The translations under genes and the position numbers were made by a program. 57,969 nt of DNA from a virus. This document shows, piece by piece, positions 21,201 through 55,472 of the stretch (positions are counted from its first letter, which is position 1; the number at the start of each line of letters is the position of its first letter). Under the pieces are notes generated by a model. That model did not search any database. It saw only the letters and a program-made list of their open reading frames with translations, and was not told the origin of the DNA. The DNA is taken from the IMG/VR virus record IMGVR_UViG_3300021400_000219, positions 1 through 57,969 of that record; one strand, 5' to 3'.

Positions 21201-24200
21201 AGCACAAGCTGGGAAAACTTACTATGCACGAGTGGAGGTTAATGGTCAAGTCAATTATTCTCCTGTAGATGTTACTGCAGAAGTTGTGGGAACAGACGTT
21301 TCTACTTATTATGAAAAAGATAATGATGAATATATTTTAACCTCTGATGTTGTTGCTCAAGCTAATAAAACTTATTATAATCGTTCAATGCAAAATGATG
21401 AAGAAGTTTTTACTGAAGTAACAGATATCATTTTGCCAGTAGAAGGTTCTAATGTTAAAAATTATTATGAACAAGTTACTACTCGCACAAAAAATGCAAC
21501 TGAAGTATTTGAATGGAGAGCGACTCCTGATAATGCCTGGGCTACTATTTTAGAAACTCGCGGAGTAGATATGCAAGCTGAGGCTCGTAAAGCTTGGACA
21601 GATTTAGTAGCATGGTTTGCTATTAATAATCCAAATGCCGCAACTAATGAATTACTTCCAGAGCCTGTCACTTATGGTACTTATACTTTCAAGGGTTATA
21701 CTTCACGTGCAGATAGATTAGATATCAATGGTAATCCTATGCCAGTACATGCTTAGGGTAAAAATGGCGTACCTAAATCTATTTTGGCAGGTTTAGCTAT
21801 TTCTGATTATAATGGTACATATACAAGAGATACAAAAGAATATCGTATGGCCAAAATGTTACATGAATGTGAAGACCATTTAATTATGGATGAAATTGTG
21901 TTCCATTATTTATTTATAGAGCGTCATGCTTTAATTGATAATGTTGCAAAAAATACATTCTGGCATACAGAAGATTTATAGCATTGGTCTATGATTAAAG
22001 ATTATGATAACGATACTTCGGATGGTAATGACAACTCTGGCCATTTAACTTTAACCTATGGTTATGAGGTTTTAGATCATGTTCATCATGACCCTCGTGA
22101 ATCATTTGTTTTTAATGCTTCTTCTTCAGTTTGGTTACATTTTATTGAAGGTTTAATGCCTGCACGTGTTCGTGTGTATTAGGCTTTAGATACAAGTGAA
22201 ATTGCGGCATGGGACGCAGAACCTTATTTAAATATTTTTAATGAATGGCAAAGTAAATTACCAGAAAGAGTTTGGATTGAAGATTATTATAGAAAGTATT
22301 TGCGTCCATTAGAAGTCTATAATGCTACTCAATTCTTACCGATGTTAGAGGGCGGGAAAAAGACATATCAAAGAAAGCAGTTTGAAACATATCAAGAGGC
22401 TTATATGTCTTCTGAATATTTTGGAAGAAAATGTCAAAGTTCTTTAATAGATATACGTGCTAATGGTAAAGATATTTATGAAATGAAATTTCCTATAAAA
22501 ATGTATGCAGATTGTTATATTCGTGCTGCCGCAGGTTCTGGTCATGATCCTAATGTCCGTGAAAGATATAAACGTGGTGAAATAGCGCAAATATCTTTAC
22601 CAGTTCGTGGCGATGCCAATGATATGACAACTTATTTTTATTTAGCTCATTATATTACTTCTTTGGGTGGTATTGAATAGTTAAAACCTAAAAAAGTAGA
22701 TATTAGTGCAGCCTATAGATTAAAAGAATTTTCAATGACTACTATTGGTGATGAATCTTATTTTGTTAAAACAGAAGATTCTTCTATTGTTGATGGTAAG
22801 AAATATTATATACCTACATATAATCCAGTAGCATATCCAGAAGAAGAGAGTTTAACAGTTTATTATGAAAAAAATATAAATAATGAATATGTTCTTACTC
22901 AAGATTCAGCTATAGACACAAGTAAAACATATTATATTTTATCTTCTTATTCATTAGTTAGTGAACCAACTGTTGCTAATTTATCTCAATATTTTGAAGA
23001 AATTATTTCTGGATAGAATTTAAATTTAACCACAGCGTCATTTAAAGCAAATCGTATGTTAGAAAAATTAGTAGTACAAGATTGTCCTAATATTGCTAAT
23101 TCATTAGATTTGTCAGCTTGTACTAATTTAAAATATTTAGATATTAGACGCAGTGGTTTTACAGGTATTATTTTAGCTTCTAATGCTCCTACTGAAACTT
23201 TATTATTAAATGATCCAACTACATTATCATTTAATAATTTATCAAGAATTAATACATTTGAAGTTGGTTATTCTCGTTTAAATACTTTATTTTTAAATAA
23301 CATTGATAATAGTCCAGGTTTAAATAGTAAAACATTAGTATCTGGCGTTACTTCTCAAACTGATATTATTTCATATAATAATTAGGAAACTTAGAGACGC
23401 AGATTATTAAATTATAATTTATAGAATATACAATGGCAATTAAATGATGCAAATGATATTGATTCTAATTTAAATATAAAATTATTAGATGAATTATTAA
23501 ATCAAGAATTAAGTACTCCTTATTCTGGTGATAGTAAAATTCCTTTCTCTTAGGGATTATCAGGTTCTTTAATAATTAATGAAAATGCTTACTCTGGATC
23601 TGAACCATTAACTATTTATAATAAATATGTAAAACAAGATGTATTTCCTAATTTAGATATTATATTTACTGCGAATAATTCTAAATTATATAATATTTCT
23701 ATTTTAGATGGTAATGGTTTAGAAATTTGGCGTAAAAAAGCAGCTTCTAATTATACTATTACTAGCACATTTTTATCTTCTGGACCATTAGGTTCTTATT
23801 ATGATTTAAATGATGTTACAGTTAAATTACCAACTGCTTCACACACTTTTACATTTACTAATACTTGGTCTATTACAGATGCAGATACTGGCGTAAATAT
23901 TGGAATTATTAATAACGCAGAACCTATTTATAATACTCCATTATCTCAAAATATTATTATCACTCCTATTTTTAATGAAGAAATTCGTTAGTATACCGTT
24001 AAATTTATGAATGGTGATTCAATTATAAATTAGGATAATTTATTATATGATTATGGAACAAAAATTAATACTATTATACCTTCTATTATTCCTAGTAAAA
24101 ATGATGATAATTTAGATATTTATGAAACATATGCATTTTTAGGTTATTCGTTAATACCAACTGCTACTACTGCTTTAACATTTACAGATAAATTCGAAGT

Positions 24201-25059
24201 TAATGCAGATTTAATTTATTATGCAGTTTATACAGATGTTATTAATACTAAAAATTCTATTAATGTTAATTATGATAATTTTAATTATAAATTAGAATCT
24301 GCGGGATATGTAGATAGTAAAGATAGTTCTTTTAATATTACTACTGGATATACAATATCACCTAAATAGGGTTTGATTTTAACTGGTAAAATTACTATTC
24401 CAGCTTATTATAATGGATTACCTATTATTAATATTACAGGTTTTGGATCATCTTAGTCAGCTACTGCATCTACAATTCAAAGAGAAATAAAAGGTATTTT
24501 CTTTGAGGAAGGTACTAAAATTAGAGTTTTTGATAGTGGTGCTTTTGCTAATATGCCTAAATTAAAATATTTAGAGATTCCTGATAGTGTTCGAGAAGTA
24601 GGATCTAGGGCTTTATAGAATACTAATTTAAAATTAACTGATACAAAAAATAATAAAATTTATTATTTAGGTTCTGAGACTAGTAATATTTATAAACTTG
24701 GTACATAGGCTTTTTCTAATTGTATTGATGGTGATTGTGAAATTTTATATATTGCACCTTCTATTTCACAATTTGAATTAGCACAACCTACAGACTGCGT
24801 TTTTGGTAATTTTAATTCCGCACATAGTTTAACTACTATTTATATTGGTTATGAATACACTCCTTCTTAGTTAGATACTTCTAATTTAGAGAGACATCCT
24901 TTTAGATTAAATCCAAATTTACCAAGCACTTTATAGCAAGTATGTTTATATATTCCTAATGGAAAATCCATAGATGGATTACCATCTTGGATAAATCCTT
25001 ATTGGTATGATACACGTTATCAAGTAGATGTATTAAGTGTTAAATATGCTTCAATTTAA
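18298..25059 (+). CDS. Giant multi-domain ORF (about 2253 codons if TAG is sense). It has an N-terminal region with a Gly/Ser linker, a lectin or jelly-roll-like segment, a higher-GC enzymatic-looking domain and a C-terminal BspA-type leucine-rich-repeat region
   Basis: AAAGGAG ribosome-binding site plus ATG at 18298. Ten consecutive track ORFs (18322, 19456, 20308, 21079, 21784, 21991, 22300, 22735, 23056 and the stop before 25084) are all in frame 1. I read every junction and found only TAG. The first TAA is at 25057-25059. This could still be more than one protein if TAG terminates in some contexts. Confidence 0.5.
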
Positions 25060-28334: not shown

Positions 28335-28556
28335 ATGTTAAGAGTTGATTCTAAAAATGTAAATTATAGTGCGGCCAGTGTTATTAATACACAAGAAGAT
28401 AGTTCTCAAATTGCATATTTTAATGCAAGTAAACATAATGAAAGATGTGATATTTCAATTAATATTGAAAATATTACTACTTATCTAAATAATTTAACTA
28501 TTTTTGAAAATGATCTATCAGATTTTCTTGTTGAAGTAACTTCCACAAATGATTAA
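28335..28556 (+). CDS. Small hypothetical protein (73 aa)
   Basis: AAAAGGAG ribosome-binding site plus ATG. Matches track ORF 28335 and ends at TAA. Confidence 0.5.
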   Translation: MLRVDSKNVNYSAASVINTQEDSSQIAYFNASKHNERCDISINIENITTYLNNLTIFENDLSDFLVEVTSTND

Positions 28557-28580
28557 TTATTTTTCAAATATTTGCTTTAA

Positions 28581-28680
28581 AAATTTTGAAAAGTGATTTT
28601 TGTTTTGGCGAGCGGTTAGGAGGGTCCTGGCCGGCCGCTTTATAATATGCGCGCACGTGTGTGCGTGCAAAATTTTCAAG
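28581..28680 (+). ncRNA. Candidate structured RNA or regulatory element (copy 1). It comprises a conserved 22-nt box, AAAAATTTTGAAAAGTGATTTT, followed by a GC-rich segment with two hairpins
   Basis: This is a GC island in an AT-rich intergenic region. The hairpins are AGCGG...CCGCT and an 8-bp stem GCGCGCAC-gtgt-GTGCGTGC containing one G-U pair. It is a paralogue of 52972-53076 and sits immediately upstream of a strong terminator. No tRNA cloverleaf can be drawn. Confidence 0.3.
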
Positions 28681-28728
28681 GGAGAAAGATATATAAAAAA
28701 TATTTTTCTCCCTTTTTTTTTATATTGG
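28677..28728 (+). terminator. Strong rho-independent terminator
   Basis: AAGGGAGAAA ... TTTCTCCCTT stem followed by a T9 run. Confidence 0.7.
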
Positions 28729-28756: not shown

Positions 28757-28804
28757 TTTTAAAGATTTTATGAATAATTCTAAAATAGAAAGGGGTGCTG
28801 AAGA

Positions 28805-31800
28805 TTGGCGCTCTTTAAAATATCTAAAGGGGATTCTAAAAAATTATTACCAGGTAATAATTAGAATCCAAATGTAAAATATGCTAAAGAAGGTTTTGCA
28901 TATTTTACAACTGATGATGGAAAATTTTATGTAGATATAGCAGGTGATGGTTTAACTACGCCCGCAATTATAAGAGATAAAGAATCAGATGGAAATCGAG
29001 TTCCTTTAAATGCATATTAGGCAGATTTTGCTGGAGAAGCGGAATTTGCTAATTTATCTAAAATTAGTTCACGAATTGCTTTTGGAACCTGTACAACCAA
29101 TGGAAATGTAATCAATAAAATTATTAGTATTGATACTAACGAATTATAGACATTAACTAGCGGATCAATGATAGCTATTTACTTTTTAAATGGTAATACA
29201 GCTGTTAATCCAAAATTAGAAATTGATTCAATATAGTATCCAATTTATTATAATTTTACTACTCCAATTGGAGATAGTATTCATTCTTCTTGGGAATCAG
29301 GTTCAATTAAAATTTTTACTTTTATGAAAGGAACAGATTCTAGTCCAGAAGATCGTTTTATTGTTACTAATCCTAATTTTGGTTCTAATCCTATTACAGA
29401 TAAAACTACTGTTTTAGCTAGCAATATGAAAATTTATCAAACTCATAATATTGAAGAATCAGACTTACAAGAAAGTGGTTGGATTAGATTTGCTTCATTA
29501 GATACTAACACTAGTAATTAGATAGGTCAAAAAATTTTTGATTTTAATATTTTCAGAACTTATTCCAGAGGAATACCTGAAACTTATAGTATTAGAGTTA
29601 TTGCAGGATGGTCTAATTGTACTATATTATAGTTAGGCGGAAACGTTGGAACACAAAGAATTACTCAATTTCGTGTATGTAAAGATAGTACGGAAAAAAA
29701 GATTTATTTTGAGCTATATTTATCAATGGATACTCCAACAAATAATAAAATCTATATAAGAACAATTAACTATACTAATAATACTCAATTAACATTTTTA
29801 AATGAAGCCGAAATTAAATCTGATTCAGAATTAGCTACTTGGACTTTACCTTTAAAACAAGCTAGTTTAATTTCAAATGCATCTATAATGCTTTCTTCAA
29901 CTTCTCGAGGATTATTTTTAACAGATTCAACTGAAAAATTATATGGAGCAATTTATAATAATGCTTCTAGTTTATGGGTTGGCGCAACTGCAACAAATGA
30001 AAATATTCATACTGGTAGTTTATGTTTTCATGCAGGTAAGGATACAAATGGTATTATAAATCGTTCAGCATTTTTAGCTGTAGGTAATAATGATACTGCA
30101 ACCACTGCTACAAATTACGTAATTGCTTATGGCTCAGGTGGTGGTCCATCGTAGCCAATATATGTTGATACTTATGGAAAAGTATAGGGTATTACAGGAG
30201 CTATTGCTAATGATACAACTGGTAATGCTGCAACTGCTACTGCGGCAAATATAACATCAACTGATAATGCTATTGTACGATTTGATGGTACTCAAGGTAA
30301 GTTTTAGAATAGTCAAGCTTGGGTTAATGATAATGGAGGTATTACTTCAAATAGCGCTATTACAGTAGGCGCAGGTTATTTTATAATTAAACCCTTTTCT
30401 TCTGAATATGATACAACAGGCACTCATGATGGAATTAAATTTTATTTTAATCATGATAGAGAAAATTATAATCCAGATACATTAATTACTTATTATTCTT
30501 TATAGGCTACTAATTTTTATGGAGTTTTAAAAGGAAATGCAGATACAGCTACAGCTTTGTCTTCTACTGGAACTACTGCTTAGTTTTGGCGTGGAGATAA
30601 TAGTTGGAGCAGTATTTTATCTGGAGCAGGAGCAAGAATTACTTTTACAGACACAGTAAATAATCGAACTATGTGGATTGGTCATCAGTCTTCACAAGAG
30701 TGGATGGGTTTATATGAAAGCACTTCTAATAATACTAAAGTATTAATTGCTCGTAATACGACTTCAAATAAAATTGGTATTGGCACGGCAACTCCAGATG
30801 CAGATTATAATATTACTTTATAGAGTTCAGTTTATTCAACTGATTTTATAACTGCTAAAGGTTTATATTTATATGGTTCAATAGGTTCAGATAAAACTAC
30901 TCGACAAATTACAAGTGATGATTTAAAAAATATTTATTTTAAAATCAATGGTAATATTTCATTAGTAGTTAAAGATGATTTGGTTGGTCCTGGATAGTCT
31001 TATTCTAATCAAATTAATTTAGGTGCTACTGAGCGACTGTGGAAAAAAGCATTTATAAATCATTATTATTTACCAAGACCTACAAATGGAGAAAGCACTG
31101 ATTGGAATACTCGCATTGCAACTACTGAAAAAAATAGTTTTACTATTGAAGAATTCGGAACATCTACACTTAATAAACCAACTAATCATTGGTATTATGG
31201 TTTTATTGGGCGTGGCTCAGATCAAGATTATTTATTACAAATTGGTTTTGGAGAAACTACTACAAGAGTAGTTTATAGAGCTAAAATTTCTAATAACTGG
31301 TCTGGCATGGCATTATATGATATCCCTTCTACTGGGCCAGTTGCTATTGGCTCTGGGGTAAAGCCTATTTATTTAGATAGTAATGGATTTTTACAAGCTT
31401 TTGCTTCTACAATAGGCACTACAACTAAACCAATTTGGATAGATGCAGGAACTATTAAAGCTGGAAGTTATGAATTAAAAGCGACTGTAGACAATGGTAC
31501 ACAACATTATTTAACTATGTATACTGCTGATGGAAGAACTATTGGCCCTGCAAGTAGTAGAACTTCAACCGTTTTATTATCTTCTACAGTAGCTGATACT
31601 TTGAAATTAACATCAACAGCAGATGCTAATTATTTAACATACGTAAGCAGTAAAGGTACTTGGAAAACTGGTATGGGCACCAATTCCAATGAATATTGGA
31701 TCTATTCTAATGATTTATCTAATTGGCGTGTTGCTATAAATAATTCTAATTTCCATTTACGTTCTTCAAGTTATTAGAAAAATACTACACCTTCTTCAAA

Positions 31801-34800
31801 TGTTGCTGGGGCAGGTATTTATACAAGAGATATTGACGATAACTATATTTGGGTATTACGAGGCTATAAAAATACTTCTAATACAATGGGTGCTTAGTTA
31901 TATACTTATGGACATAGCACAAATGATACTGGCACAAGCACTTTTTCAATTTATAGAACATCTACCCCTGATACTTATATAAATTGGACTGGTGGAAAAA
32001 TTGGTAATAGTATTTATCCTTGGGCAAATGCAACTTATAATATTGGTTCAAATGATTTAGCTTGGAATCAATTACATTTAACTTATGATTCTTCATCTGC
32101 TAGAAATAAAGGTATTCGTTTTATGAATGCTGGAACTTTAGTAGGTAATATAGGTGCAACAGCACAAGGATTAGGTATTTATGGTAATGGTCATTTATAT
32201 TTAAGACCTTCTTTAACTGAAACACAAGGTATGGAAATTACTTCTACTGCAGTTCAACCAGCAACAAATCATGATATTAATTTAGGAACAACTTCGTTAA
32301 GATGGAATTAGATTCATGCTAAATCTTATTATATTGAAGATACTCGCAATGAAGATTTAACTGCAGCTACAAGTGATAAAGCTATAAGATTTTTCTTTAG
32401 TAATAATAATATGCCAAACACTCAATGGTGGTCTGGTATTCATGTTCGAGGTTGGAATGGTGGATATTCATCATGGGAATTAGTAGGTCCAGCTGGTAAT
32501 GTTGATCAAAGAACTACTCCATTATATATAAAAACAAGTAATATTAATACTGATTGGGGCGAATGGCGTCCAATTTTAGATAGTTATAATGGTGTTATGC
32601 GTTTTCATTATGGAGGCACTGGAACTACAACAAAAATATTAATTACTATAAATAATACAAACTCTTGGATGGCATCTTTTACTTTAAGATTATATTAGGG
32701 ATATCAAGCTACAGATTTATAGATTAGCGGTTATAATTATAATAATACAGATACTCCTTGGTCTTCACCTCAAGCTATTGTATTAGGTTCAACTGCATAC
32801 GATGGCCCATTAGTATATTTTGGATATACAGATACATAGAAATTATGGGTAGCTGTAGATGGCGCTAGGTATACAGGCGTTGATGTTTTTGGCATTACTA
32901 ATGGTTATACTCAAATCAATTTAAAAGATTTTTGTACTATTACTAATGTTTCTACTTTACCTGGAACACTTCAAAAAACAGTAAGAGCTTATAGTCGTTT
33001 AACTCATAATGTTGTAAGCGATACTGGTGATATTACTTTACATAATTAGCCAGGAACTTTTGCTTTTTCAGGAAATGGAGATCCTTGGAGTGGAAATGAT
33101 TGGGTTGGATTTTAGGTAGGAAATAATTTAGATAAATTTTAGATTGTTAGAGTTAATTCAAATAATTTACTATTCCGTTAGAATGATAGTGGAGGAGTTA
33201 ATACTTCTTGGGGAACTTGGGAAAAAATATTAACAGATGTAAATACTTCATGGGTAGCTTGGACTCCAGGAACTACTGCAGGACCTTAGGCTAATTTATC
33301 ATTAAGTGGAACTAATATTCAAAGTGCCGCGATTCCTTCTGCTAGCACAACAGCAAGTGGTATTGTAACTACTGGAGAATAGTCTTTTACAGGTAAAAAA
33401 ACCTTTAATTGGTTGCGCGTTGTTAATAATTCATCTAATAATGCTGATGATGCACTTTTTTATATTGAAAGTAAAAATAGTAATGATTGGGCTTAGAAAA
33501 TTCTCTTAGATACTTTTAACTATGGTTTATATATTCAAGGAACCGGAACTTCATTGTTAAAAGTTGGAACAAATAATAATTTTACTGTTAATTCTACAAC
33601 TGCAGCTTTTGGATAGTAGGCAAATCCTATGACAATAACAATGCATGGACGATTAGTTATAGATAGAACCGATATAACCTATACAGCAGGAGATGAGGGT
33701 GAATAGGGACAATCTATCCCTCTTATTAACATAAAATATAAAAATACTGGCACGGGTGTTTATGATCAAAATATACTTAATGCCATAAAAACAACAGAAA
33801 CTGGTGCCACTGTAGATGCTACAACGATAGCGCTAACTTCAGGTGGTGGTAGTCTGATTTTAGCTGCCGGAGAGCATATGAACGGATTATTAACAAAGAA
33901 TGGTCCTTTTAAATATGGAAGTGAAACATTAATTTTATCTTCAGATTAGAATGTTGAAATGATGACTGGTTGTCATAACTCAAATGGAACTTATACAGCT
34001 CGCACAAGAGTTGGTTCGATCGGAATATAGATGCATTTTCCTTATAATAATTTTAATAGAAACCTTCAACCTAGCGCAGCGGTAGAAAGAGGAATGTTTT
34101 TATATGGTGCTAATATTATAACAGAAACACCTACAGTAACCAGTGATGAAAATCAATTTGTAGCTGGAACTTATTATCGCATAGAAAAAACATCAGGTAA
34201 TCGTATTTACTATGCAGCTACTATGTATAATACTAATAATGATTTTAAATATTTAAGTTTAAAAATGCCATATAATCAAACTTCATCATTTTTAATGTGG
34301 ACAGATGGATATGTTGGTAACCGCATAATACCCTGGGCTAATAATAATTATGAATTAGGATCTTCAGATTACAAATGGAAAGAAGTGCATGCAACAACAT
34401 TCTACGGCACTTTATCTGGGACAGCAACTACTGCGAATAATTTAAAAACGACACTTATGACCAATGCTTCAACACCGGTTTTCGTTTTAGGAGCCACTGG
34501 AACGTCTGCGAGTACTTCTCAGGCTGTATATAAGGCATATCGTACTTCAACTGCTCAAGTATATTTTAGAGGAGATACTGGTGTCTTAATGGGTGCAGCT
34601 TGGAATGACTATGCAGAATATCGTCAAGCAAAAAATAATATAGAAATTGCTCCTGGCAGAGTAGTAAAAGAAGTTGGAGATGAAACATTAGAATTAGTGA
34701 CTGAAAGATTACAACGAGGATGTTCAATAGTTTCTAATACTTTTGGTATTAGCATTGGTGAAAGTGAAACTAATAAATTGCCATTAGCAGTATCTGGACG

Positions 34801-35023
34801 AGTGTTAGCATATCCATACGAAGATAAAGAAGAATTTAAAAATCATATTGGTTGGCCAGTTTGCTCTGGTCCTAATGGAACAGTAAGCATTATGACTGAA
34901 GAAGAAGAAGAAAAATATTCAAGCCGAATCATTGGCACCATATCCTCTGTTCCAAGTTATGAAGTATGGCACGGGGGGGCTGATGTGGTTGTTGATGGGC
35001 GTGTTTGGATAAAAGTGAGGTGA
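28805..35023 (+). CDS. Giant tail-fibre or receptor-binding protein (about 2072 codons; N-terminus MALFKISKGDSKKLLPGNNQNPNVKYAKEGFAYFTTDDGKFYVDIAGDG...)
   Basis: GAAAGGGGTG ribosome-binding site. A frame-2 TGA sits at 28799-28801, then a TTG start at 28805. Track ORFs 29324, 29726, 31307, 32123, 32411 and 34031 are all in frame 2 and joined only by TAG. The terminal TGA is at 35021-35023. Confidence 0.55.
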
Positions 35024-35027
35024 AAGT

Positions 35028-36493
35028 ATGGCTTTAAAAGAAACAAAAGCAACAATTGATGGAACTGGGACTGATAGTATAAAATTTGGTCAGAGTGCTG
35101 TTGCCTCAGGTGCCTATTCTATTGCAATAGGGTATGGGACAAGTGCTACTGCTGAAGAGGCTGCGGCACTAGGGAAGTACGCCGTAGCTAAATTAGAGGC
35201 AACCGCTGTAGGAGCTTATGCTAATGCTCTCGGCAATTACTCAGTAGCATTAGGATTTCTGTCTAATGCACCTGCTGATCTTTCGACTGCGGTAGGGACT
35301 TATGCTACTGCTTCTAACGAGGAGTCTACTGCATTAGGACATTGTGCAGAAGCTGCCGGTAATTAGGCTACTACATTAGGGTATTTTGCTAATGCCTCAA
35401 AAGACGGTGCTACTGCATTAGGAGCTTATGCAAATGCTACTGGAATAAATTCAACAGCAGCAGGATTTAAAGCAGTGGCTTCTGGCACTACTGCAATTGC
35501 ATTAGGGCCAGAAACTAACGCTTCTGCTTCTTCGGCAACTGCTTTAGGACAGTATGCAAAGGCTTCTAAGAGTTGTGCTTTGGCGATAGGGTATGGCGCC
35601 AAAGCATCAGGAGTTTATGCTTTTGCCATAGGAACCTATGAATCAACAGCTTCTGCAAATTATACAACAGCCATAGATGGATATGCTACAGCAGATAGAG
35701 CAATAGCTGTTGGTGGAAACGCGGTTGGAGCTAATTCATTAGCCTTAGGATTTGCTTCAAAAGCTTCTGGCATTAATTCAATAGCCATAGGAAAAGAAGC
35801 AAATACAGCACAAAATTATTCTACAGCTTTAGGCTATAAAGCAAATATAAATACTTCTCATAGTGTTAATTGTATGATGCTTGGAGGATCTACTTAGGTT
35901 AATATTTATTATTATGGAACACTACGTTCACAATCAGATATTAATGATAAAATTGATGTTTCAGAAATTCCAAATGGAGCAACTGAATTATTTAAATAGC
36001 TAACTCCAATAGAATATTATTATAATTATAGGGATGAATATATTGAACCAGAAGAATGGTTAGAAGAAGAAATTGAAATAAAAGATGAGAATGGAAATAT
36101 TGTATATGATGAAGAAGGTAATTCTTTAAAAGATATTATTAGAACTTGTAATTTATCAAAAGAAGAATAGGAAAAACGTAAAAAATATGGTCAAGGAACA
36201 TATGATAAAGAAGCTTGGTAGCAAGGATTAAAAAAACATACAGATCCTCAAGTAGGTTTATCGGCATAGGAATTATTACAAGCATTAGAAAATATTTATG
36301 GAAATTCTCGAGCTTTTCCATTAGTAGGAGATAATTTTGATAATTTTGAATTAGAAGAAGGAGAAGAAATTCCTGAAGATATTGAACATAGATATAATAT
36401 TGCTTATATAAATTTAATTCCATTTTTAATTAAATCAATTAAAGAATTAGATGCTCGTATTACTGAGCTTGAACGAGAAAAAGGAGAAAATTA
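35028..36493 (+). CDS. Tail-fibre protein (about 488 aa) with an Ala/Gly-rich head-repeat region and a C-terminal intramolecular-chaperone-like domain (peptidase S74-like)
   Basis: GAGGTGA ribosome-binding site plus ATG at 35028. Frame 0 runs through track ORF 35475 to a TAA. The repeats AxGxxAxAxGxxSxA resemble a trimeric fibre or adhesin head. The C-terminus (...RSQSDINDKI...HTDPQVGLSAQELLQALENIY...IKELDARITELEREKGEN) resembles the endosialidase-chaperone domain by recall. Confidence 0.65.
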
Positions 36494-47472: not shown

Positions 47473-50400
47473 TTATTCGCCACCTTCTCCTTTATATCTT
47501 TCAATTTGAAGAATTAAATCTCCATCTTTATCAATGTCTACAATATGATATAATTGATGCCCCCCAGAAGTTGCATATTTTTTAGCTATAAAAGTATCTC
47601 CTGATCGGACACCTTGCACCATAATCATACTGCCTCTATTAAACCAACTAGTTTCTTGACGATGTTTTATCCCATCTTCGCCTATTTCAGAAATAGTTTT
47701 ATCAAATAAAGCAAAATATTCTTTTCTAAATTTAACATTTACTACTCCATCAGTAGTTAAAATGGTTGCAATTCCTTTAGTTTTATTTTTAGCAATGCAA
47801 GTGCCGCAAATTTTAAAGAGTTTAAACATATTTATAGTTTTTTTACCTTTTGTAAAACTCCTGTCTATAATTGGTTCTTCTGGTAATGAATAAAAATTAC
47901 TTAATCCATATTTACCCATATTTACAGTAGATAATTCATGAGGATGATGATAAAAACAAAGAACTTCCATTTCCCAAGAAGAATAATTTCCAGAAGCATA
48001 TTTATCCCAATCTAATTTAAAGATTTGGTCATTTAATTGCTGAAGAACTTCATTACCAGATTCTTTTAACCAATCTCTAAAAATATCCATTACAGATTGA
48101 TAATATTTATCCCAAACTTTCGCTATTAAAATATTATTTCCTGAAATTATATCGTCTTTATCAATTTTAGTTAAAAAATCTATTGCGCGAGTGTCTAATT
48201 GATAATAACCTGGTAATTTATCATTTTTACAAACCGCCTTTAAATATCTATTAAATTCATAAACACTAAAAGCAAATTGTCTTTCTTCTGTATCTCTTGG
48301 AATTAAATTCATTTTATTTAATGTTGGCATATTTTGAAGTGTTAAACGAGATTTTTTATCACAAGTTTGCCAGATAAACCAAGCCATTGCTAATTTTCTA
48401 TCCATCATTTGATCAAAAGCGCCTGCTTTAATTAATGACACCATAGATTGCTTTTTTGGGCTAATCTTTTGATAGAAATCTTTAATAGATATATATGGTC
48501 TATTTGCAATAATTTCACGAACTAAATCATCATTAACATTCAATAATGCTTTCATTCCAAATAAAATTTGATGATTTTGTATGTCAGGTTTAAATCCAAA
48601 ATCAGATTGATTAATATCAACTAAACTTACATTAATACCAGCATTAATAATTTCATTTAACGCTTTTGCGATTTTACCATAATCAGTGCTTACAGTTTTA
48701 TCATCTTCAGTATCACTATTTTCATCTTCTAATGAACCACTGTTTACAACTAAACAAGCAGTATCCCAATAAATTGGGTCAAAAGAAGTTGCAAGATATA
48801 AAGTTTGAACACCTACAAAACTATATGCTAAACTATGAATAGTAGAAAAACTATATCCCATCTGCGGACCTGCGCCATATTTCCAAACATATGCACCTAG
48901 CTGAGGACTTTTTGCTTGTCCAAGAACCTTTTGATGTAATGCAGGAATTTTATCCATTTGTTTTTTACCTACTACTTTACGAGCAGAGTTTGCTTCTGCT
49001 AATGTAAATCCGCAAATATCTTTATCCATTAACATTAACATTAATTGTTCTTGGCTTGGTGGTACGCCATATGATGATTTAAAATAAGGTTCTAAGGTTT
49101 TTTGTTCATTAGGGGTTAATCCCCAACGATTCATTTCATCATACCATAATTGAATATTATTTTTAAATTTAAAATATTTATCAATAGGACGTTCTTCTTC
49201 TTCTCCCATAAGACGCAATAACCCATTTGCGTCACTCATTTCGGTAATTGAACGAGGCCGCAAACGTTTAGCTGCTTTAACGCCTTCTTGAGAATCGAAT
49301 TGAAAAATATTTATAACTGAAACGTTATCAAGTGCATCCCAAATTCTTTCATCATCTCTTGGTAAAACATTAGGATGCAAATATTTATCATAGACTTCTT
49401 TTAAAGATAATTCAGGTTCAATTTGACCATCTTGCTATAAAAATTGAATAGTTTGAACAATTTTATCTTGAACTTCTGTTACCAAGAAATCATATTTAAC
49501 ATTGCCCATATATTCTATGTCATGAAGATTCCATTGAGTAATAATTTCACCCTTTGGAGTTTTCATAAAAGCGCAATGTTCAAATGGGTCATCACTAAAT
49601 AATACAATGCCAGAAGCATGAGAAGAGCGTTTGTTATGAATACCTTCGATAGCAATGATAATTTCAGCTAAACCTGGATAATTATTTACTTCACGAACGA
49701 ATGAAGCTACTGGTTTTCTTCCTTTTTCAAGATTACCGAATAATACATCTTTTACAGGCCATAAAAATCCTCGTTCTTCTGGCACTAAAGAAGCCATATA
49801 TTGAGCTTGATCTACATCAATACCCTCTGAATAATCTTCACTTCTATAACCTCTACAGGCTGTTAAAATTGCAGATTTAGTAGTTTCAGTTCCAAAAGTA
49901 GCAATTCGTGTACATCCAAAGATTTTTGCCCATTCTGGCACATTATCATTAAATGTAGCACTTCTCTCTTGAGCAATTTTATTAATAATAGTTTTAATTT
50001 TAGAAGGACAAACGTCTATATCTATATCGCCAAGTTCTACACGATCTTCATTAAGATATCTAAAGAAAGGTAAATCCCATTCAATAGGGTCTAACTGAGT
50101 AATACCCATTAAATAATGATTTAAAGCTGCACAAGAAGAACCTCTGCCTGCGCCAATAGTAGAACCACATTCCCAAATTAAATTAATATAATGCTGAAGA
50201 GTATTAGGATATCGAAACATATTTGTTTCAAGCTTTTCACTAATAATACTTTTTACGCGAGCCTCTTCTTCTAATTCAGTAAAATATTGTTCAGCCTTTG
50301 GAGAATCACAAATTCCCAATTCATACATTTTTTCAATACATTGATTTACCCAATAACGATTTTGAATATCATCATCATGTAACATTTGACTTAAATGAGG

Positions 50401-51405
50401 ATATTTAGGATTATCTTCTCCAACACCATTAACAGTTATCCAATAAGATTTAGGATATTCTTTTACTTCTACACTTGGTACATCCTATTTATGGAATAAA
50501 GAATATCTTGAAATTTTATTATAAATTTCTAAAGAATTTTTCATAACTACTGATGCAAATTCTTCATCATTATCAAAAGTAATTGTTAAATTCTTTAATA
50601 CTTCATCAGGAGACATAAGATAAGCATATTCATAAAATAAATCTACTTCTCGTTCTCCTTCTTTAGAATTAAGATATGCTTTATGGACTTGTCTATCTTC
50701 TTTAGTTAAATAATGACTATCTGTTCCAACAGTCATTTTAATGTTATATACATTAGCAATAGAACGAAGAATCTGATTTACTCTAATTTGATCTTTAGAA
50801 GGTGCAGGCGCACATTCAATATAAAAATCATCACCAAATAAATTTAAACAAAACTTTAGAAATTCTTCTATTTTTTGATAATAAATAGTTGCATTAGAAA
50901 TATCATCTACTTCTATACAATCTTTATAAGCTATAGCTAATTGACTTAATTCTCCGCCAATGCAAGCTGTTGTTGCAATTAGATGACCAGGAAATTTATT
51001 TACTACTTCTACTAACTCAGATTTTAAAGTAGGAACTCTTTCCATTTTTCTATCTACATAAGAATTCATCCAAGCGCGAGAACTTAATTCTCGTAATGCC
51101 CTATGACCGATAGCATCTTTAGCAATTAAAATAAAATGATAATATTTTTGACCATTATCTCTAGTATCAGTTAAATAAATTTCATTACCTAAAGCTAATT
51201 TAAAATCTGGATTTCTTTCTTGTACTTTAAGCATATGCTTTTCTGCAGCTATATGAGCAGATAATACTTCATGATCAGTAATGGCTATTCCCATTAGTCC
51301 CATATCTATAGCTTTGTCAATAAGCTGTTCTGGTGTATTTATACAATCTACAAGCCGCAGATTTGAGTCGGTAGTATGGTTATGATTATTAAAATATGTA
51401 TTCAT
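47473..51405 (-). CDS. dnaE: DNA polymerase III alpha subunit (DnaE-type; about 1310 codons)
   Basis: Three track ORFs (50485..51405 PHP domain; 49435..50385 polymerase core ...GSTIGAGRGSSCAALNHYLMGITQLDP...; 47473..49380) share one frame and are separated by TAG codons, cta on the + strand at 50485-87 and 49435-37. Confidence 0.9.
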
Positions 51406-51461: not shown

Positions 51462-52667
51462 TCAATTTTTTTGAATTACAACTAATTTTTTTGCAGCGCG
51501 TGTAATTCCTGTATATAAATATTTTTTTCTTTCTACTTGGCCCCTTGGCCATCCAGATTCTTCACAAAGTAATACTTTATCCCATTCGCTACCTTGAGCT
51601 TTCCATACACTAATAGCATAACCGAAATTAGCATGTAATGGTAAAGCAAATTTTTTATGTAAACGATATTCTTCTTTTGGATTTAAAGATGGGTTTCCTG
51701 TTAATAATTCATTATAATCAAATGATATCATATCATATTGTTCATCATCATTATCGCCTGAGATAGTGGCTGTTAAAATGGGAACTGAAAAAGAATGCCC
51801 ACGTACCCAATAAGGATAATTCCAATGAGAAATTGTCATTTGTTTTATTGTTCCAATTACACCATTAGTTAAAGGATTTTGCTGATTTGATAAAATTTCC
51901 CATTCATTATGAAGATTAATTATTTTATCTCCTACCATAGGTTCATTGGGTAATTCTTGAGCTGCTCTCATTTGATTATTAAGAATTAATTTATTACGAG
52001 TTGTAGCACATAAAACTTGGTCAGCCCATAATAGCATAGATGTGGATAACTCGGATTTATGGAACATCATAACTTGTTCATTTTTACAAGGAAAAGTGCT
52101 TAATGGATTACCTTGTCGCACATGCATTGATAAGCGAATAATTTCACTTTCTTGCGCTTGTCTCATTATTTCATCTAAAAAAATATGTGGATTATCTAAT
52201 ACATGGTTATCAGCATCTTCTCCTGGCGTATCTGAGATAGGAGATAATTGTTCAGGGTCTCCACAAGCTAAAATATAAAAATTATGTTGACATAATAGAT
52301 TCCACATTTTCCAAGGTAACATACTAACTTCATCTACTACAACTATTTTTATTTCTGATTCCATTTCAAATGGAGCTTTTGGAACAAAAACATAATTACC
52401 TGTAGGCATTCTACGTGCATGATATAAAAGCTTATGTGCTGTAGTTGGATTAGGACAATTTTTTTGTTTTAATACATTTGTTGCTTTTCCAGTATAAGCA
52501 ATATATCTTACTTCATTTTCTTGTACACCTAAAGCATCAATAATAAAACGAACAAGGGTTGATTTCCCTGTTCCCGCAAATCCTGCAATTACAGTATATT
52601 TAAATCCTGCCTGATATCTTGCAACAGCAATCTACAAACCTTCTTCTTGCTTTTTAGTTAATATCAT
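51462..52667 (-). CDS. SF1 Dda/RecD-like DNA helicase (about 402 aa)
   Basis: Track ORF 51462..52409 is extended upstream across one TAG (cta at 52632-34) to the ATG at 52665-67 and then a TAA. The Walker A motif IAGFAGTGKST and ...VVVDEVSMLP are present. Confidence 0.8.
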
Positions 52668-52926
52668 TTTTAGTTACCTTTTGTCCCATTGGACGGCATA
52701 CCCAACTAATATACTCTTGAAATTGAACATTATATCTACTTTTAAAATAATCAATTATTTCATAATCAGATAAATAATCAAAACAATATATTCCATACAT
52801 TACTTTAAATTCAGTGTCATATTTTTTTTCTATTACATCAAGTAAGTTCCAAAAATCTCGTCCATTATACATAAATTCACTAAAATCATACTTATCTAAA
52901 CATTTTATATTATATTCTTTATCCAT
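52654..52926 (-). CDS. Hypothetical protein (about 90 aa, MDKEYNIKCLDKYDF...)
   Basis: An ATG with a GGTGGA ribosome-binding site lies inside track ORF 52654..52974, whose own start is a TTG. Confidence 0.45.
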   Translation of the reverse strand: MDKEYNIKCLDKYDFSEFMYNGRDFWNLLDVIEKKYDTEFKVMYGIYCFDYLSDYEIIDYFKSRYNVQFQEYISWVCRPMGQKVTKNDIN

Positions 52927-52945
52927 ACATCCACCTCTATTATAT

Positions 52946-52974
52946 ATTATAACATTTTTTAATTTTTGATTCAA
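52946..52974 (-). promoter_or_regulatory. Sigma-70/SigA-type promoter TTGAAT-17-TATAAT driving the - strand replication operon
   Basis: - strand reading: TTGAATcaaaaattaaaaaatgtTATAATatataatAGAGGTGGAtgtATG. Confidence 0.5.
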
Positions 52975-53076
52975 AAATTTTGAAAAGTGATTTTAGTTCT
53001 GGATTGCGGTTGTAGTGGCCCTGCGCGGCCGTAGTAGACATTTTCTTCGCAGGGGTGTGTGCGTGTGAGCTATATG
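52972..53076. other. Copy 2 of the conserved 22-nt box plus GC-rich element (paralogue of 28581-28680)
   Basis: The 22-mer caaaaattttgaaaagtgatttt is shared. The GC-rich core aligns with copy 1 (GCGGTT..GG.CCTG..CGGCCG...GTGTGTGCGTG). It lies between the 3D-domain gene stop and the - strand promoter. Confidence 0.3.
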
Positions 53077-53682
53077 TTACCACGCAGTTGCGATATCAAG
53101 CTGATAAATATTACGTTTGGCAAAGCCGCCAGTATCGCAAACAATGCCTAAACCAAGAGATGTTTGAACAATACTACCTCTAGGATGAACAGATAAATTA
53201 GCAGCGCACATTACATAATTACCTAACATTTTAACGCCATCTTGTCGCACCCAATATGGATATTCAGCTTCAGAAAATCCTCTATTACGCATAATGCGTA
53301 CAACTCCTCCCATAGGAAGATTATAATAAGTTTCCTTCCCAGAAGGACCATAATTAACACCCTTGGATTTTGTTAATTTAGAACCTGTCCAAGAAAATGT
53401 AACAGCTTCACTTGCTTTCAAATCATCTAATTTCTTTTGGATATCTGTTTGGGCATTATGAGCTGTCCACCATTCAGATTGAGCTGTAGTAATAATAGTA
53501 TGGTCTTCAGTATATCCTAAAGCTCTTGCGGCTTCAGCCATTTGATGTGCATAATTCTTTCGTTCTTCCAATTGGTTAATTAGACTTTCATGTTCTTCAA
53601 TTGTAGTAGGTTCAGCGGCAAAAACATTAAAAGGTAAAATAAAACTAAGTAGTAATAATGTACTAATAATAATTTTTTTCAT
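53077..53682 (-). CDS. Secreted 3D-domain (MltA-like) cell-wall hydrolase (201 aa). It is a candidate peptidoglycan lytic enzyme or endolysin
   Basis: Track ORF with a signal peptide MKKIIISTLLLLSFILPFNVFAAEP and a C-terminal ...GSIVQTSLGLGIVCDTGGF... matching the 3D (YuiC/YabE-type) domain. It has no internal TAG. Confidence 0.7.
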   Translation of the reverse strand: MKKIIISTLLLLSFILPFNVFAAEPTTIEEHESLINQLEERKNYAHQMAEAARALGYTEDHTIITTAQSEWWTAHNAQTDIQKKLDDLKASEAVTFSWTGSKLTKSKGVNYGPSGKETYYNLPMGGVVRIMRNRGFSEAEYPYWVRQDGVKMLGNYVMCAANLSVHPRGSIVQTSLGLGIVCDTGGFAKRNIYQLDIATAW

Positions 53683-53693
53683 CTAATCTCTCC

Positions 53694-55472
53694 TTAAAAA
53701 ATATAATTTGTTTTATTAATTATTTCATAATCTTCAATTAAAATTTGAGGAGAGATATTTCCACCCCATTCATTTAAATTGCAAGTACCTATAATATTAA
53801 TAATTGTAATCCCATCAGCTTTTAATGATTCAAATTCTTCTTGACTTGCTTTAAATTTAATTAAAGATAAATTATTATTTAATTGAACTTTTATAGTAGG
53901 ACTTTTATCTGGTGACATCAATTTTAAATCTTTTGAATGAATTTGGATATTTTCTATAGCAATCTAAGGCTCTGGAATTCCCTAACCCCATATTGAATGC
54001 AGAAAACCAATATCTAAAATATCCTAAATATGTCTATCCAAGTCACCATAATTCCAAATAAAATCAACTTTATAAGATGCATTAAAATCAAAATCCCTTA
54101 ATTTATTTGTAATATAATCTTTAAGCTATGTTATACAGCTATCATCAATTATACAACCAAAAGCAGAAGCATGACCTTGTGCTAATTTAACAAAATTAGA
54201 TTCTACTAAAAACTCTCTAAAATTATCTAATTTAGAAAATTGAGTATTTCTACCACTGCCGCGCCATTCAAAACAAGTAATTTCACCAGTAGTATTATCA
54301 TATTCAATATGAGAATTAAGAATTAAGGTTGGCCTTTGATATTCGTTTGCAATTTGATTTGCAATTAACCCAGTAAGATTTTCTTCTACTGGTTCAGCTA
54401 ATTGAACAATTAAAATTGGAAGATTTAATAAATTTTCATCTTGAATTTTTTTTCTTATAATTTCTAAACTCGTATCTCTCGCTCGTGTCTATCTATTTTT
54501 TACATTTGTGCAATTTCTACAAGACTATTCAACTCGAGTTTCAAACTAACCTTTACAACCTCGTTTAGTTGATGGTATTTGTTCATATGCTTTAAAATCT
54601 AACATAGATTCAAAAAGTAGCAATTTTTCTTCAAAAGTTCCTAAACGAATAACAGCATTTATATAAGGAGCTATATAAAAAGAAACACCAAATGGAGTCA
54701 ATTCTCCTCTAAGAGAATACGATTGTTTATCTACAAAAGCTTTTATAAAAGGATTTCTTAAATTATTAAATCCTTCTAAAATTAATTCTCTTGTTTCATA
54801 TTCAGTTAATTGCATCATATCTGCTATCATACCAATAGAAACTAAATCTAAAATATCATCAGCATAATTCTAACCATCATCAATTAATGAATCTATATAC
54901 TAACAAAATTTATAAACTACTCCAACACCAGATAAAGTTTTATTAGGATAATCGCAAGTTTGATTATTAATACGACAAGCAAATTCACAAATAGGAATAT
55001 CAGATTCATGATGATCTAAAATTAAAACATCTGTATTATTTTTCCAAAGAGCAAGCTATTGTTCAAAATCATTACTACCGGCATCAGGAATAATTAATAA
55101 TTTAGTGTCTTTTGGAATAACTTCTAAATTAATACCATGCTATTTCCCAGTATGAATAGTATAGCTAATATTAGCTTGCGCAGTTCCTGGAAAACGCATA
55201 TTTATGTAATTAATTAAAGCAGCTGCGCTAGTATATCCATCTGCATCACTATCTATTTGAATAAATATTTTACTACCCAATGCTAAATGTTTTAATAACA
55301 TTTTTGCACCAGTATCCATATTCTCAAGCAAAAGCGGATCTAATATATCTTCTTTTGTAGTATGCAAATAATGTTGAATATCATCAGGCTAAATACCACG
55401 ATTATAAAAAATCTATTCTATAGGAGATTCAAATAAATTTGGAGTTTGCGTTAAATAAGAATAATCCATCAT
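53694..55472 (-). CDS. RecJ-like DHH-family single-strand DNA exonuclease (about 593 codons)
   Basis: Track ORFs 55140..55367 (…IQIDSDADGYTSAAAL…), 54546..54830 and 53694..53921 share one frame. The bridging sequence contains ...VLILDHHESD... The AAGGAAGGAGGAT ribosome-binding site plus ATG ATG lies near 55470. About 8 TAG codons are internal. Confidence 0.75.

Follow-up and report, generated by a model that had tools for sequence, protein, structure and literature searches.

Why does the same short sequence stand both at the promoter of a phage replication operon and, some 24 kb away, at the end of a late transcription unit? We addressed this question in the viral sequence IMGVR_UViG_3300021400_000219 from IMG/VR (57,969 nt, the whole stretch of DNA analyzed and hereafter the window), in which a first-pass annotation made from the letters alone had noticed a 22-mer and a GC-rich core recurring at these two places. 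Our analysis points to a putative ancient cis-element of ~90-100 bp, present in two copies per genome, that represents a new and deeply conserved family in uncultured, recoded phages and is most like the paired replication origins of other phages.

A two-copy element and its relatives

Searching the window for the 22-mer AAAAATTTTGAAAAGTGATTTT returned two exact sites, both on the + strand, at 28579-28600 and 52973-52994, and still only these two when up to 3 mismatches were allowed, against 0.02 expected from shuffled sequences. The first pass had located the second site correctly, with coordinates one base off. The exact 11-mer GTGTGTGCGTG likewise has two sites (28657 and 53055; 0.02 expected), and a repeat search recovered the pair as a direct repeat of 77 nt at 77% identity, its copies 24,394 bp apart. 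Distances from the start of the AT-rich box are equal in both copies for CGGTT (34), CCTG (47) and CGGCCG (53). These features indicate that the two loci are truly homologous, and the recurrence in the same orientation stands as first described; the motif was also found in many other genomes, and the likeness, which the first pass allowed might dissolve when more genomes were aligned, became clearer as they were added. The layout comprises the AT-rich box with an invariant 15-mer, AAAAATTTTGAAAAG, and then CGGTT, CCTGxxCGGCCG and GTGTGTGCGTG at fixed distances:

52973-52994, + strand: copy 2, box (22-mer), with the 15-mer core AAAAATTTTGAAAAG at 52973-52987
52970-52984: palindrome TTCAAAA-A-TTTTGAA in copy 2
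52995-53076, + strand: copy 2, GC-rich part, with CGGTT at 53007-53011, CCTGCGCGGCCG at 53020-53031 and GTGTGTGCGTG at 53055-53065
28579-28668, + strand: copy 1 (late element), with the box at 28579-28600 and CGGTT at 28613-28617
28626-28637 and 28649-28668, + strand: copy 1 GC blocks, CCTGGCCGGCCG and GCGCGCACGTGTGTGCGTGC respectively

The GC-rich part of copy 2 has 58% GC against 29% genome-wide. Perfect 8-bp palindromes occur in the element (AAAATTTT and GGCCGGCC, plus CACGCGTG or TGCGCGCA), as does an 8-nt tandem repeat (GCGTGTGT twice) in three lineages. No match to the element was found in cultured phages, and wider pattern scans returned mostly chance matches; of the hits in the metagenome scan, L199, L201 and L204 are chance matches (related loci are designated here by L numbers). 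CodY box, DnaA box and Chi-like motifs were compared by eye and set aside, their spacing or sequence being unfit.

The two copies lie among the following features:

28335-28556, + strand: 73-aa late gene, whose stop precedes copy 1; late synteny anchor
28678-28724, + strand: intrinsic terminator with a 15-bp stem and T-run, a separate feature downstream of copy 1
28805-35023, + strand: tail-fibre-like giant gene with TTG start (MALFKISKG...) and many in-frame TAGs
53077-53682, - strand: 201-aa gene with signal-peptide-like N-terminus, upstream of copy 2
52940-53083, - strand: 47-aa open reading frame (ORF) across copy 2, GTG start; judged not to be a gene
52946-52974, - strand: sigma-A-type promoter, TTGAAT (52974-52969), 17 nt, TG-n-TATAAT (52951-52946)
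52654-52926, - strand: conserved 90-aa gene just downstream of copy 2, overlapping the helicase start
51462-52667, - strand: RecD/Dda-like superfamily 1 (SF1) helicase, synteny anchor

Copy 1, which the first pass called a putative RNA leader, precedes the intrinsic terminator and forms the 3' end of the upstream late transcription unit, not the leader of the next gene. Scans of IMG/VR for late-region relatives gave none, and searching by pattern brought up L203, which is the same phage at 99.7% identity, and the relative L206, whose element is 92-97% identical to that of the window against 55-70% for the flanking late genes. Further late relatives were found with the 73-aa protein as anchor, bringing the late copy to five lineages (window/L203, L206/L212-L214, L215/L216, L217 and L218/L219), each with the copy at one and the same place, between the stop codon of a 65-74 aa gene and an intrinsic terminator that precedes the tail-fibre gene, whose L217 homologue carries Gp34_trimer. 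The anchor protein is only 47-59% identical among these five lineages, while the element has three invariant blocks and stretches of 12-22 nt without change. The box, CGG(T/C)T, CCTGGCCGGCCG and GCGTGTGTGCGTG do not vary; the 9-10 nt between CGGTT and CCTGG are free in sequence and constant in length. The box of L217 begins 1 nt past a stop codon, and the late terminators differ among relatives by compensatory changes.

For copy 2, 80 related IMG/VR loci were fetched with the helicase as anchor, and an nhmmer profile of the element was positive in more than 40 of the 80, every hit lying 0.1-1.5 kb upstream of the helicase and antisense to it, in the same synteny as copy 2. The profile was seeded from by-eye picks and its E-values for distant coding forms are partly circular, so the case for homology is carried by synteny and by the intermediates L005 and L207. 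Closer relatives with the element include L207, L210/L211, L220/L221 and L222, the 15-mer being identical in L210/L211, L220/L221 and L222. In most relatives the element falls where an ORF of 110-190 aa on the helicase strand, here called gene X, encodes its linker; gene X stands directly upstream of a small gene and the Dda-like helicase. Gene X proteins have a common N-terminal domain (G.SA.EAG.AL..L) and a central motif, LLRPxTxxxTE(N/K)PNQKxDLEIF, with variants DFDFL and LFNFL, and received no assignment from Pfam or PHROG; L207 has an intact 110-aa gene X with a Shine-Dalgarno (SD) sequence. Translated from the - strand, the copy 2 box gives KSLFKIF and the GC-rich part an Ala/Gly/Pro/Arg-rich linker; compared with the gene X frame, copy 2 lacks 1 nt and contains TAA stops, and its GC-rich part is what remains of the gene X sequence for the "LLRP...TENPNQK" linker. 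Gene X itself is not detectable anywhere in the window; the comparison indicates that it was lost from this position in the window lineage, leaving the element flanked by the 201-aa gene and the operon promoter. In distant relatives with an intact gene X, the second element copy lies in a tRNA array beside a ROOL RNA, oriented as copy 2 is relative to the local genes (antisense).

Two copies each were found in five genomes (the window, JAFTFU010000004.1, ERZ28653742 scaffold_1033, IMGVR 3300026549_000035 and IMGVR 3300032007_000018), as direct repeats in 5 of 5. Nine copies from both contexts align without gaps over ~60 nt, and the same blocks are kept at copy 1 and copy 2 despite opposite local transcription. 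Paired copies were compared in three genomes, namely the window, JAFTFU010000004.1 (L206 and L221) and scaffold_1033 (L217 and L222). Late copies are 74-94% identical to one another and replication-side copies 55-88%, with 63-75% across loci, so that late copies group together and replication-side copies group together. This clustering by locus led us to reject concerted evolution or gene conversion, and antisense co-evolution of the copies was not seen in the three genomes: at one position the window has T in copy 1 against C in copy 2 and JAFTFU010000004.1 has the reverse, and the boxes of the two scaffold_1033 copies match over 15 nt only. Clustering by locus and the lack of co-variation together indicate that the duplication is old, and that mutual antisense pairing is not what preserves the likeness.

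What is conserved within the element is the nucleotide sequence and not a peptide. In the gene X block, bases are kept where residues vary, such as one column in which T, S, P and I are all encoded by xCC (ACC, TCC, CCC, ATC) and a second in which P, A, S and T are all encoded by xCG (CCG, GCG, TCG, ACG). Rare GC-rich codons (CTG CTC CGG CCG ACC) are fixed there in AT-rich genomes, and codon identity at same-residue sites is 0.77 in the block vs. 0.57 elsewhere. The 15-mer is invariant in short non-coding forms, third positions (CTT TTC) included, while the notional frame differs among these forms, which fall into 23-nt and 24-nt spacing classes; stops occur at the same codon in copy 2 of the window (TAA), L144 (TAA) and L100 (TGA). 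Between the window and L221, the 47-aa ORF has 2 synonymous and 11 non-synonymous codon differences and its internal ATG is lost in L221, and the gene X frame of copy 2 has 7 synonymous and 5 non-synonymous differences, small numbers in either class. These substitution patterns indicate that the element is under selection at the nucleotide level.

Two observations concern the reading frames here. The gene X frame of copy 2 (53077-52946, - strand) is in phase with the 201-aa gene, with a TAA between them and a second TAA inside. A read-through extension of the 201-aa gene was considered and rejected, the two TAA stops being conserved in L221 and the counts too small.

An origin-like reading of the pair

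Recognition of the element as double-stranded DNA is suggested because the same blocks and spacing are kept under opposite transcription, within a coding region and after its loss, and in a 3' untranslated region (UTR). Most likely the element acts as a DNA duplex to which at least one sequence-specific protein binds, and the likeliest role of its two copies would be that of a pair of replication origins or initiator-binding sites, after oriL and oriR of phage SPP1. We put the probability of this reading at about 40%, a figure that also covers a protein-bound DNA site of a more general kind.

SPP1 has two similarly organized origins, each with repeats and an AT-rich unwinding region, of which oriL is contained in gene 38, with the loader and helicase genes following, and oriR occupies a late intergenic segment with transcription signals on both sides (PMC6316719). 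As with these origins, which are bound by gp38, the element has a probable Firmicute host and two copies, one in a replication gene just upstream of a helicase and one in a late intergenic position with transcription signals on both sides. An AT-rich part is present as well. Similarly organized copies were found twice per genome in the five genomes above. The replication-gene position is seen in most relatives and the late intergenic position in five lineages, a tRNA-array copy taking the place of the latter in more distant relatives. The element has no sequence similarity to the SPP1 origins and no clear iteron array, just short palindromes and one 8-nt tandem repeat. The adjoining helicase here is SF1 (Dda/RecD-like) and not DnaB, a DnaB-like gene lying ~4 kb off, and gene X is small and lost in the window lineage.

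The origin of phage lambda encodes an inter-domain linker. It lies within gene O (PMC6022878). The element resembles it as a DNA site embedded in a replication gene, with the best-conserved part of gene X being a linker-like segment. Lambda differs in having a single copy, with iterons bound by the product of the gene that contains them, whereas the present element has two copies and persists after its gene is gone.

Several points weigh against an origin pair. Beyond the lack of a clear iteron array, the box is not extreme in composition (~84% AT vs. 71% for the genome), and neither copy coincides with a switch in GC skew or gene orientation, the skew following transcription and turning near 38-41 kb. 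If gene X were the initiator, its loss in the window lineage would be hard to explain. The direct-repeat orientation could be mere inheritance. Copy 1 always lies upstream of a terminator and inside a transcription unit, and its second hairpin uses G-U pairs possible on the + strand only, both of which fit a role in RNA. Finally, the origin role is assigned by analogy.

Other explanations for the conserved blocks

The first alternative, which we judge rather unlikely, is a shared operator, at which a transcription factor of phage or host origin would recognize the box and GC palindromes of both loci and tune the helicase/polymerase promoter as well as the boundary between the late unit and the tail-fibre gene, the box being UP-like in the window. 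It is in keeping with constraint at the DNA level and with palindromic sub-sites, and copy 2 does adjoin a strong promoter. As the first pass had stated, a SigA-type promoter is present on the - strand, where TTGAAT-17-TATAAT with its TG extension scores 10/12, is the best match in the region, and precedes the small gene, helicase and Pol III operon, followed by an SD (GAGGTGG, 52937-52931) and an ATG at 52926. It is 100% conserved in L221, as part of an identical 68-nt stretch that includes the box. Promoter-like matches as a whole show no excess in this AT-rich region (5 vs. 4.1 in shuffles). The 22-mer overlaps the -35 hexamer by 2 nt, where 3 had been given. On the helicase strand of the homologues, a strong TTGxxx-17-TATAAT promoter follows the element every time in replication and tRNA-array contexts, ~0-60 nt off; where it overlaps the box, in L210/L211 and L193, the -35 hexamer and spacer come from the box. 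Between L210 and L211, box, promoter and SD are identical at 55 of 55 positions despite a 26.5% difference at third codon positions of the helicase.

The UP element consensus is AAAWWTWTTTTNNNAAA. Like the UP element of rrnB P1, the window box (at about -38 to -59) fills the region directly upstream of -35 and, compared by eye, resembles that consensus with 2 mismatches and a shift of 2-3 nt. Among homologues, however, the distance from box to -35 is -19, -2, +8, +10, +17, +18 or +45 nt, with the promoter adjoining the box in the window and L221 and lying 8-45 nt away in other relatives, and these distances are not helix-phased. The window geometry is therefore lineage-specific, and since the promoter position is not fixed, the UP-element or activator position proposed in the first pass fits the window but neither the family nor copy 1. 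Constraint also extends ~60 nt further, into the GC blocks. Copy 1 is followed by no promoter on that strand, and a terminator stands between it and the tail-fibre promoter; a + strand sigma-70 promoter formed from the box (TTGCTT-17-GATTTT) was rejected as weak (7/12), its -35 not being kept in L217, and a Bacteroidetes-type promoter (TTTG / TAnnTTTG) was dropped because of the strong SD sequences and the SPbeta-like replication module. Operators in the middle of coding regions, as in most relatives, would be unusual, and a regulator gene was not identified in the window. The contact of copy 2 with the sigma-A promoter is real, secondary and lineage-specific. Of the regulator-binding site that the first pass proposed for the late and replication loci, homology and selection are borne out, a shared factor is compatible with these results, and the part tied to promoter position is not retained.

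We regard as less likely again an RNA role for copy 1, as the 3' UTR of abundant late transcripts or as a small RNA ending at the terminator. Because copy 1 is antisense to gene X and copy 2, its RNA could pair with replication-operon transcripts (a perfect duplex of 22 bp in this phage), with RNase III cleavage or a shut-off in late infection as the outcome. In 5 of 5 lineages the terminator immediately follows copy 1 within the late unit, and copy 1 of the window folds better than shuffles (z = -6.6 with the terminator, -3.4 without), with z of -3.4, -2.5, -1.6 and -2.3 for relatives. A second GC-rich hairpin forms in every late copy and needs G-U pairs possible only on the + strand, which keeps this minority hypothesis alive; the sole copy 1 difference between L203 (L203:11028-11101) and the window, GCGCGCAC to GCGCGTAC within 28649-28668, is a C to U change that keeps a G-U pair. 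Since no terminator prediction falls in the interval from the 201-aa gene to copy 2, the complement would be present in read-through transcripts.

However, RNAalifold on 13 short-form copies found 0 pairs and no consensus structure on either strand, and covariation of candidate helices does not exceed shuffles: in the eight late and replication-side sequences compared, 83% of cells are paired, equal to the shuffled mean, with 1 compensatory pair. In L217 and L218 the inner part of hairpin 1 is disrupted, no co-variation links the late copy to copy 2 within a genome, and copy 2 folds no better than shuffles (z near 0). Copies in tRNA arrays and beside the helicase keep the blocks though they would be transcribed in the opposite sense, and the internal promoter has its start site downstream of the 22-mer. 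Rfam gave no hit at the gathering threshold in the window, nothing at locus 2 at E up to 10, and at locus 1 only sub-threshold hairpin-plus-terminator look-alikes. With no terminator predicted on either strand at 52600-53300, no consensus fold and no covariation above shuffles, the repeated terminator or insulator RNA offered as an option in the first pass finds no support. Lambda nutL/nutR and HK022 putL/putR are comparable in having two copies, each a linear box followed by hairpins, and copy 1 likewise stands before a terminator. Those sites are co-oriented with their operons, whereas copy 2 and the tRNA-array copies are antisense and only copy 1 is co-oriented; the hairpins here are without covariation, and the promoter follows the terminator.

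A slimmer chance goes to two more specific schemes, in which the late copy is a 3' UTR antisense module derived from a replication-gene fragment, or the pair is an origin plus a polar fork barrier. Under the former, late transcripts may carry ~90 nt complementary to replication read-through RNA, including the 22-bp duplex and an 11-bp GC block, and if true this module would couple the start of late transcription to shut-off of replication genes, or to their RNase III-type cleavage. The fork-barrier variant, if true, would time the switch from theta to concatemeric replication, as has been proposed for SPP1 oriR.

It is quite improbable, in our assessment, that the element is a functionless relic or recombination linker, with copy 2 the leftover 3' piece of gene X and the junctions points of module exchange. 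The frameshift and stops of copy 2 relative to the gene X frame would fit, as would the GC-rich part being ~55-60% identical to L210 vs. 78% for flanking DNA, and the gene slot just upstream is hypervariable, holding among relatives the 201-aa gene, Phage_lysozyme2, an added SLH protein or gene X. The order of hairpin or terminator, element and TTGxxx-17-TATAAT promoter recurs in L003, L004, L011 and L210/L211, the hairpin upstream of the element in L210/L211 changing in ways that keep pairing only on the helicase strand. A precedent exists in T4-like phages, whose PeSLs are short conserved intergenic units of stem-loop and early-type promoter by hypervariable slots (PMC4122927). This composite and its hypervariable neighbor slot resemble PeSLs, which differ in being many-copy and in flanking indels; the present genomes have just two copies each, the far end of the SLH insertion in L211 is without an element copy, and the core is neither promoter nor stem-loop. 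The relic reading is further opposed by the invariant late blocks beside a divergent protein, by a GC-rich part that differs by 13% between L210 and L211, ~half the synonymous rate, and by nucleotide constraint seen even within intact gene X.

That copy 2 acts through a micro-protein is very improbable: - strand ORFs of 31-47 aa (...NPELKSLFKIF...) retain the C-terminal motif of gene X, which could be clamp-binding or SSB-tail-like, the box reads KSLFKIF on that strand, (D/S)LEIF, DFDFL or LFNFL is conserved in intact gene X, and short forms have an ATG in L005 (38 aa), L003 (57 aa, with SD) and L001 (27 aa), but the frame varies (FSKFL in the 23-nt class, LFKIF in the 24-nt class), the same-codon stops, the lost L221 start and the excess of non-synonymous changes described above stand against it, L206 has lost start and stop though its nucleotides are 94-95% conserved, copy 1 is antisense to the late operon, and the CTT TTC third positions are invariant despite strong AT codon bias.

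The recoded genome and the meaning of the element

The window has 29% GC (71% AT), and TAG is a sense codon across it (code 15-like). Counting TAG as coding raises the total in open frames of at least 150 aa from 6,175 to 18,227 aa (about threefold) and yields collinear giant late genes on the + strand at 1-41.4 kb, with a replication and nucleotide-metabolism block on the - strand at 41.5-58 kb. The latter encodes a DnaB-like protein, a gene syntenic with SPbeta yorJ (no Pfam hit), a RecJ-like protein, the 201-aa secreted-looking protein, the 90-aa protein, the Dda/RecD-like helicase, Pol III alpha, guanylate kinase, NrdD, dUTPase and a RuvC-like protein. The 201-aa protein had been called a secreted 3D-domain protein; its N-terminus is signal-peptide-like, and Pfam gave no hit that would confirm the 3D label. 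A structure prediction of the 90-aa protein was uninformative, with a mean predicted local distance difference test (pLDDT) score of 41. The polymerase is 39% identical to SPbeta YorL, the order yorI, yorJ, yorK, yorL is the same in SPbeta, which also has a 3D-domain gene (yorM) there, and the SD sequences of window genes are strong. The host is probably a Firmicute because the replication module resembles that of SPbeta. JAFTFU010000004.1 (120,761 bp) was deposited as "MAG: Clostridia bacterium RGIG3779", from roe deer abomasum; its collinearity with the window phage in the late and replication regions implies a phage or prophage contig binned with a bacterium, and this binning may be a hint at the host.

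TAG usage is uneven. Giant late genes have 17-31 in-frame TAGs each (e.g., 18298-25059, + strand), 2 TAGs split the Pol III alpha gene (47473-51405, - strand) into three standard-code ORFs, the RecJ-like gene (53694-55472, - strand) contains 13, and the 201-aa, 90-aa and 73-aa genes adjoining the two element copies contain zero. TAG density steps sharply at copy 2, from heavy in the RecJ-like and yorJ-like genes upstream to light in the helicase and polymerase downstream. ARAGORN found no tRNA genes in the window, neither element locus included. Arrays of up to 23 tRNAs per 11.7 kb occur in the relatives L001/L202, L100, L144 and L193, with suppressor tRNAs (anticodon CTA) in those of L202 and L193, and ROOL RNA (bit scores 332-339) and skipping-rope RNA also occur in relatives (L001:1566-2154, L099:1204-1808 and L001:5993-6103). 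Upstream of the tRNA-array element copy in L001, positions 899-964 (- strand) gave a sub-threshold match to a hepatitis delta virus (HDV)-like ribozyme (F. prausnitzii; 24.5 bits, E = 0.05), with uncalled tRNA-like fragments close by.

Other observations concern the genes next to each copy and the late proteins. An 840-aa SLH-domain gene (L211:4055-6577) lies between the lysozyme-like gene and the conserved hairpin and is not in L210, the two being otherwise 88-93% identical, which marks the slot upstream of copy 2 as a hotspot of gene gain and loss. Near copy 1, the tail-fibre SD and first codons (window 28771-28830, GAAAGGGGTGCTGAAGATTGGCGCTCTTTAAAATA) are 90-92% conserved in nucleotides among L206, L212, L215 and L217, while the remainder of the gene diverges fast; in L206, L212 and L217 an additional GC-rich stretch, GGTCCGGCCGC, is inserted a few codons in and recalls the GGCCGGCC block of the element. 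The giant late proteins have in common a family of 77-nt coding modules encoding ...YYEK...EYILT.D....KTYY, found in the window at:

8802-8878, 11717-11793, 17153-17229, 21303-21379 and 22860-22936: 77-nt late module repeats

Giant late genes also contain Ala/Gly-rich repeats with 42- or 84-nt periodicity, such as 35199-35753, and one late-protein repeat unit has TAG at the position of TAC in its paralogues.

The TAG-recoded large phages of gut and rumen Firmicutes are, to our knowledge, uncultured, and we know of no cis-control or origin sequences for them. The element, with a 15-mer core that lends itself to mutation, is a concrete and testable candidate control or origin site for such phages. 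It also suggests caution in annotation, as the best-conserved "protein motif" of a gene may reflect the underlying DNA, and what looks like a repeated "RNA motif" may have its source in a former coding region. If the two copies are an origin pair, the principle of an origin within a replication gene, as in SPP1 and lambda, would extend to a different phage lineage, and the element would provide an anchor for metagenomic phage genome maps and for replication models.

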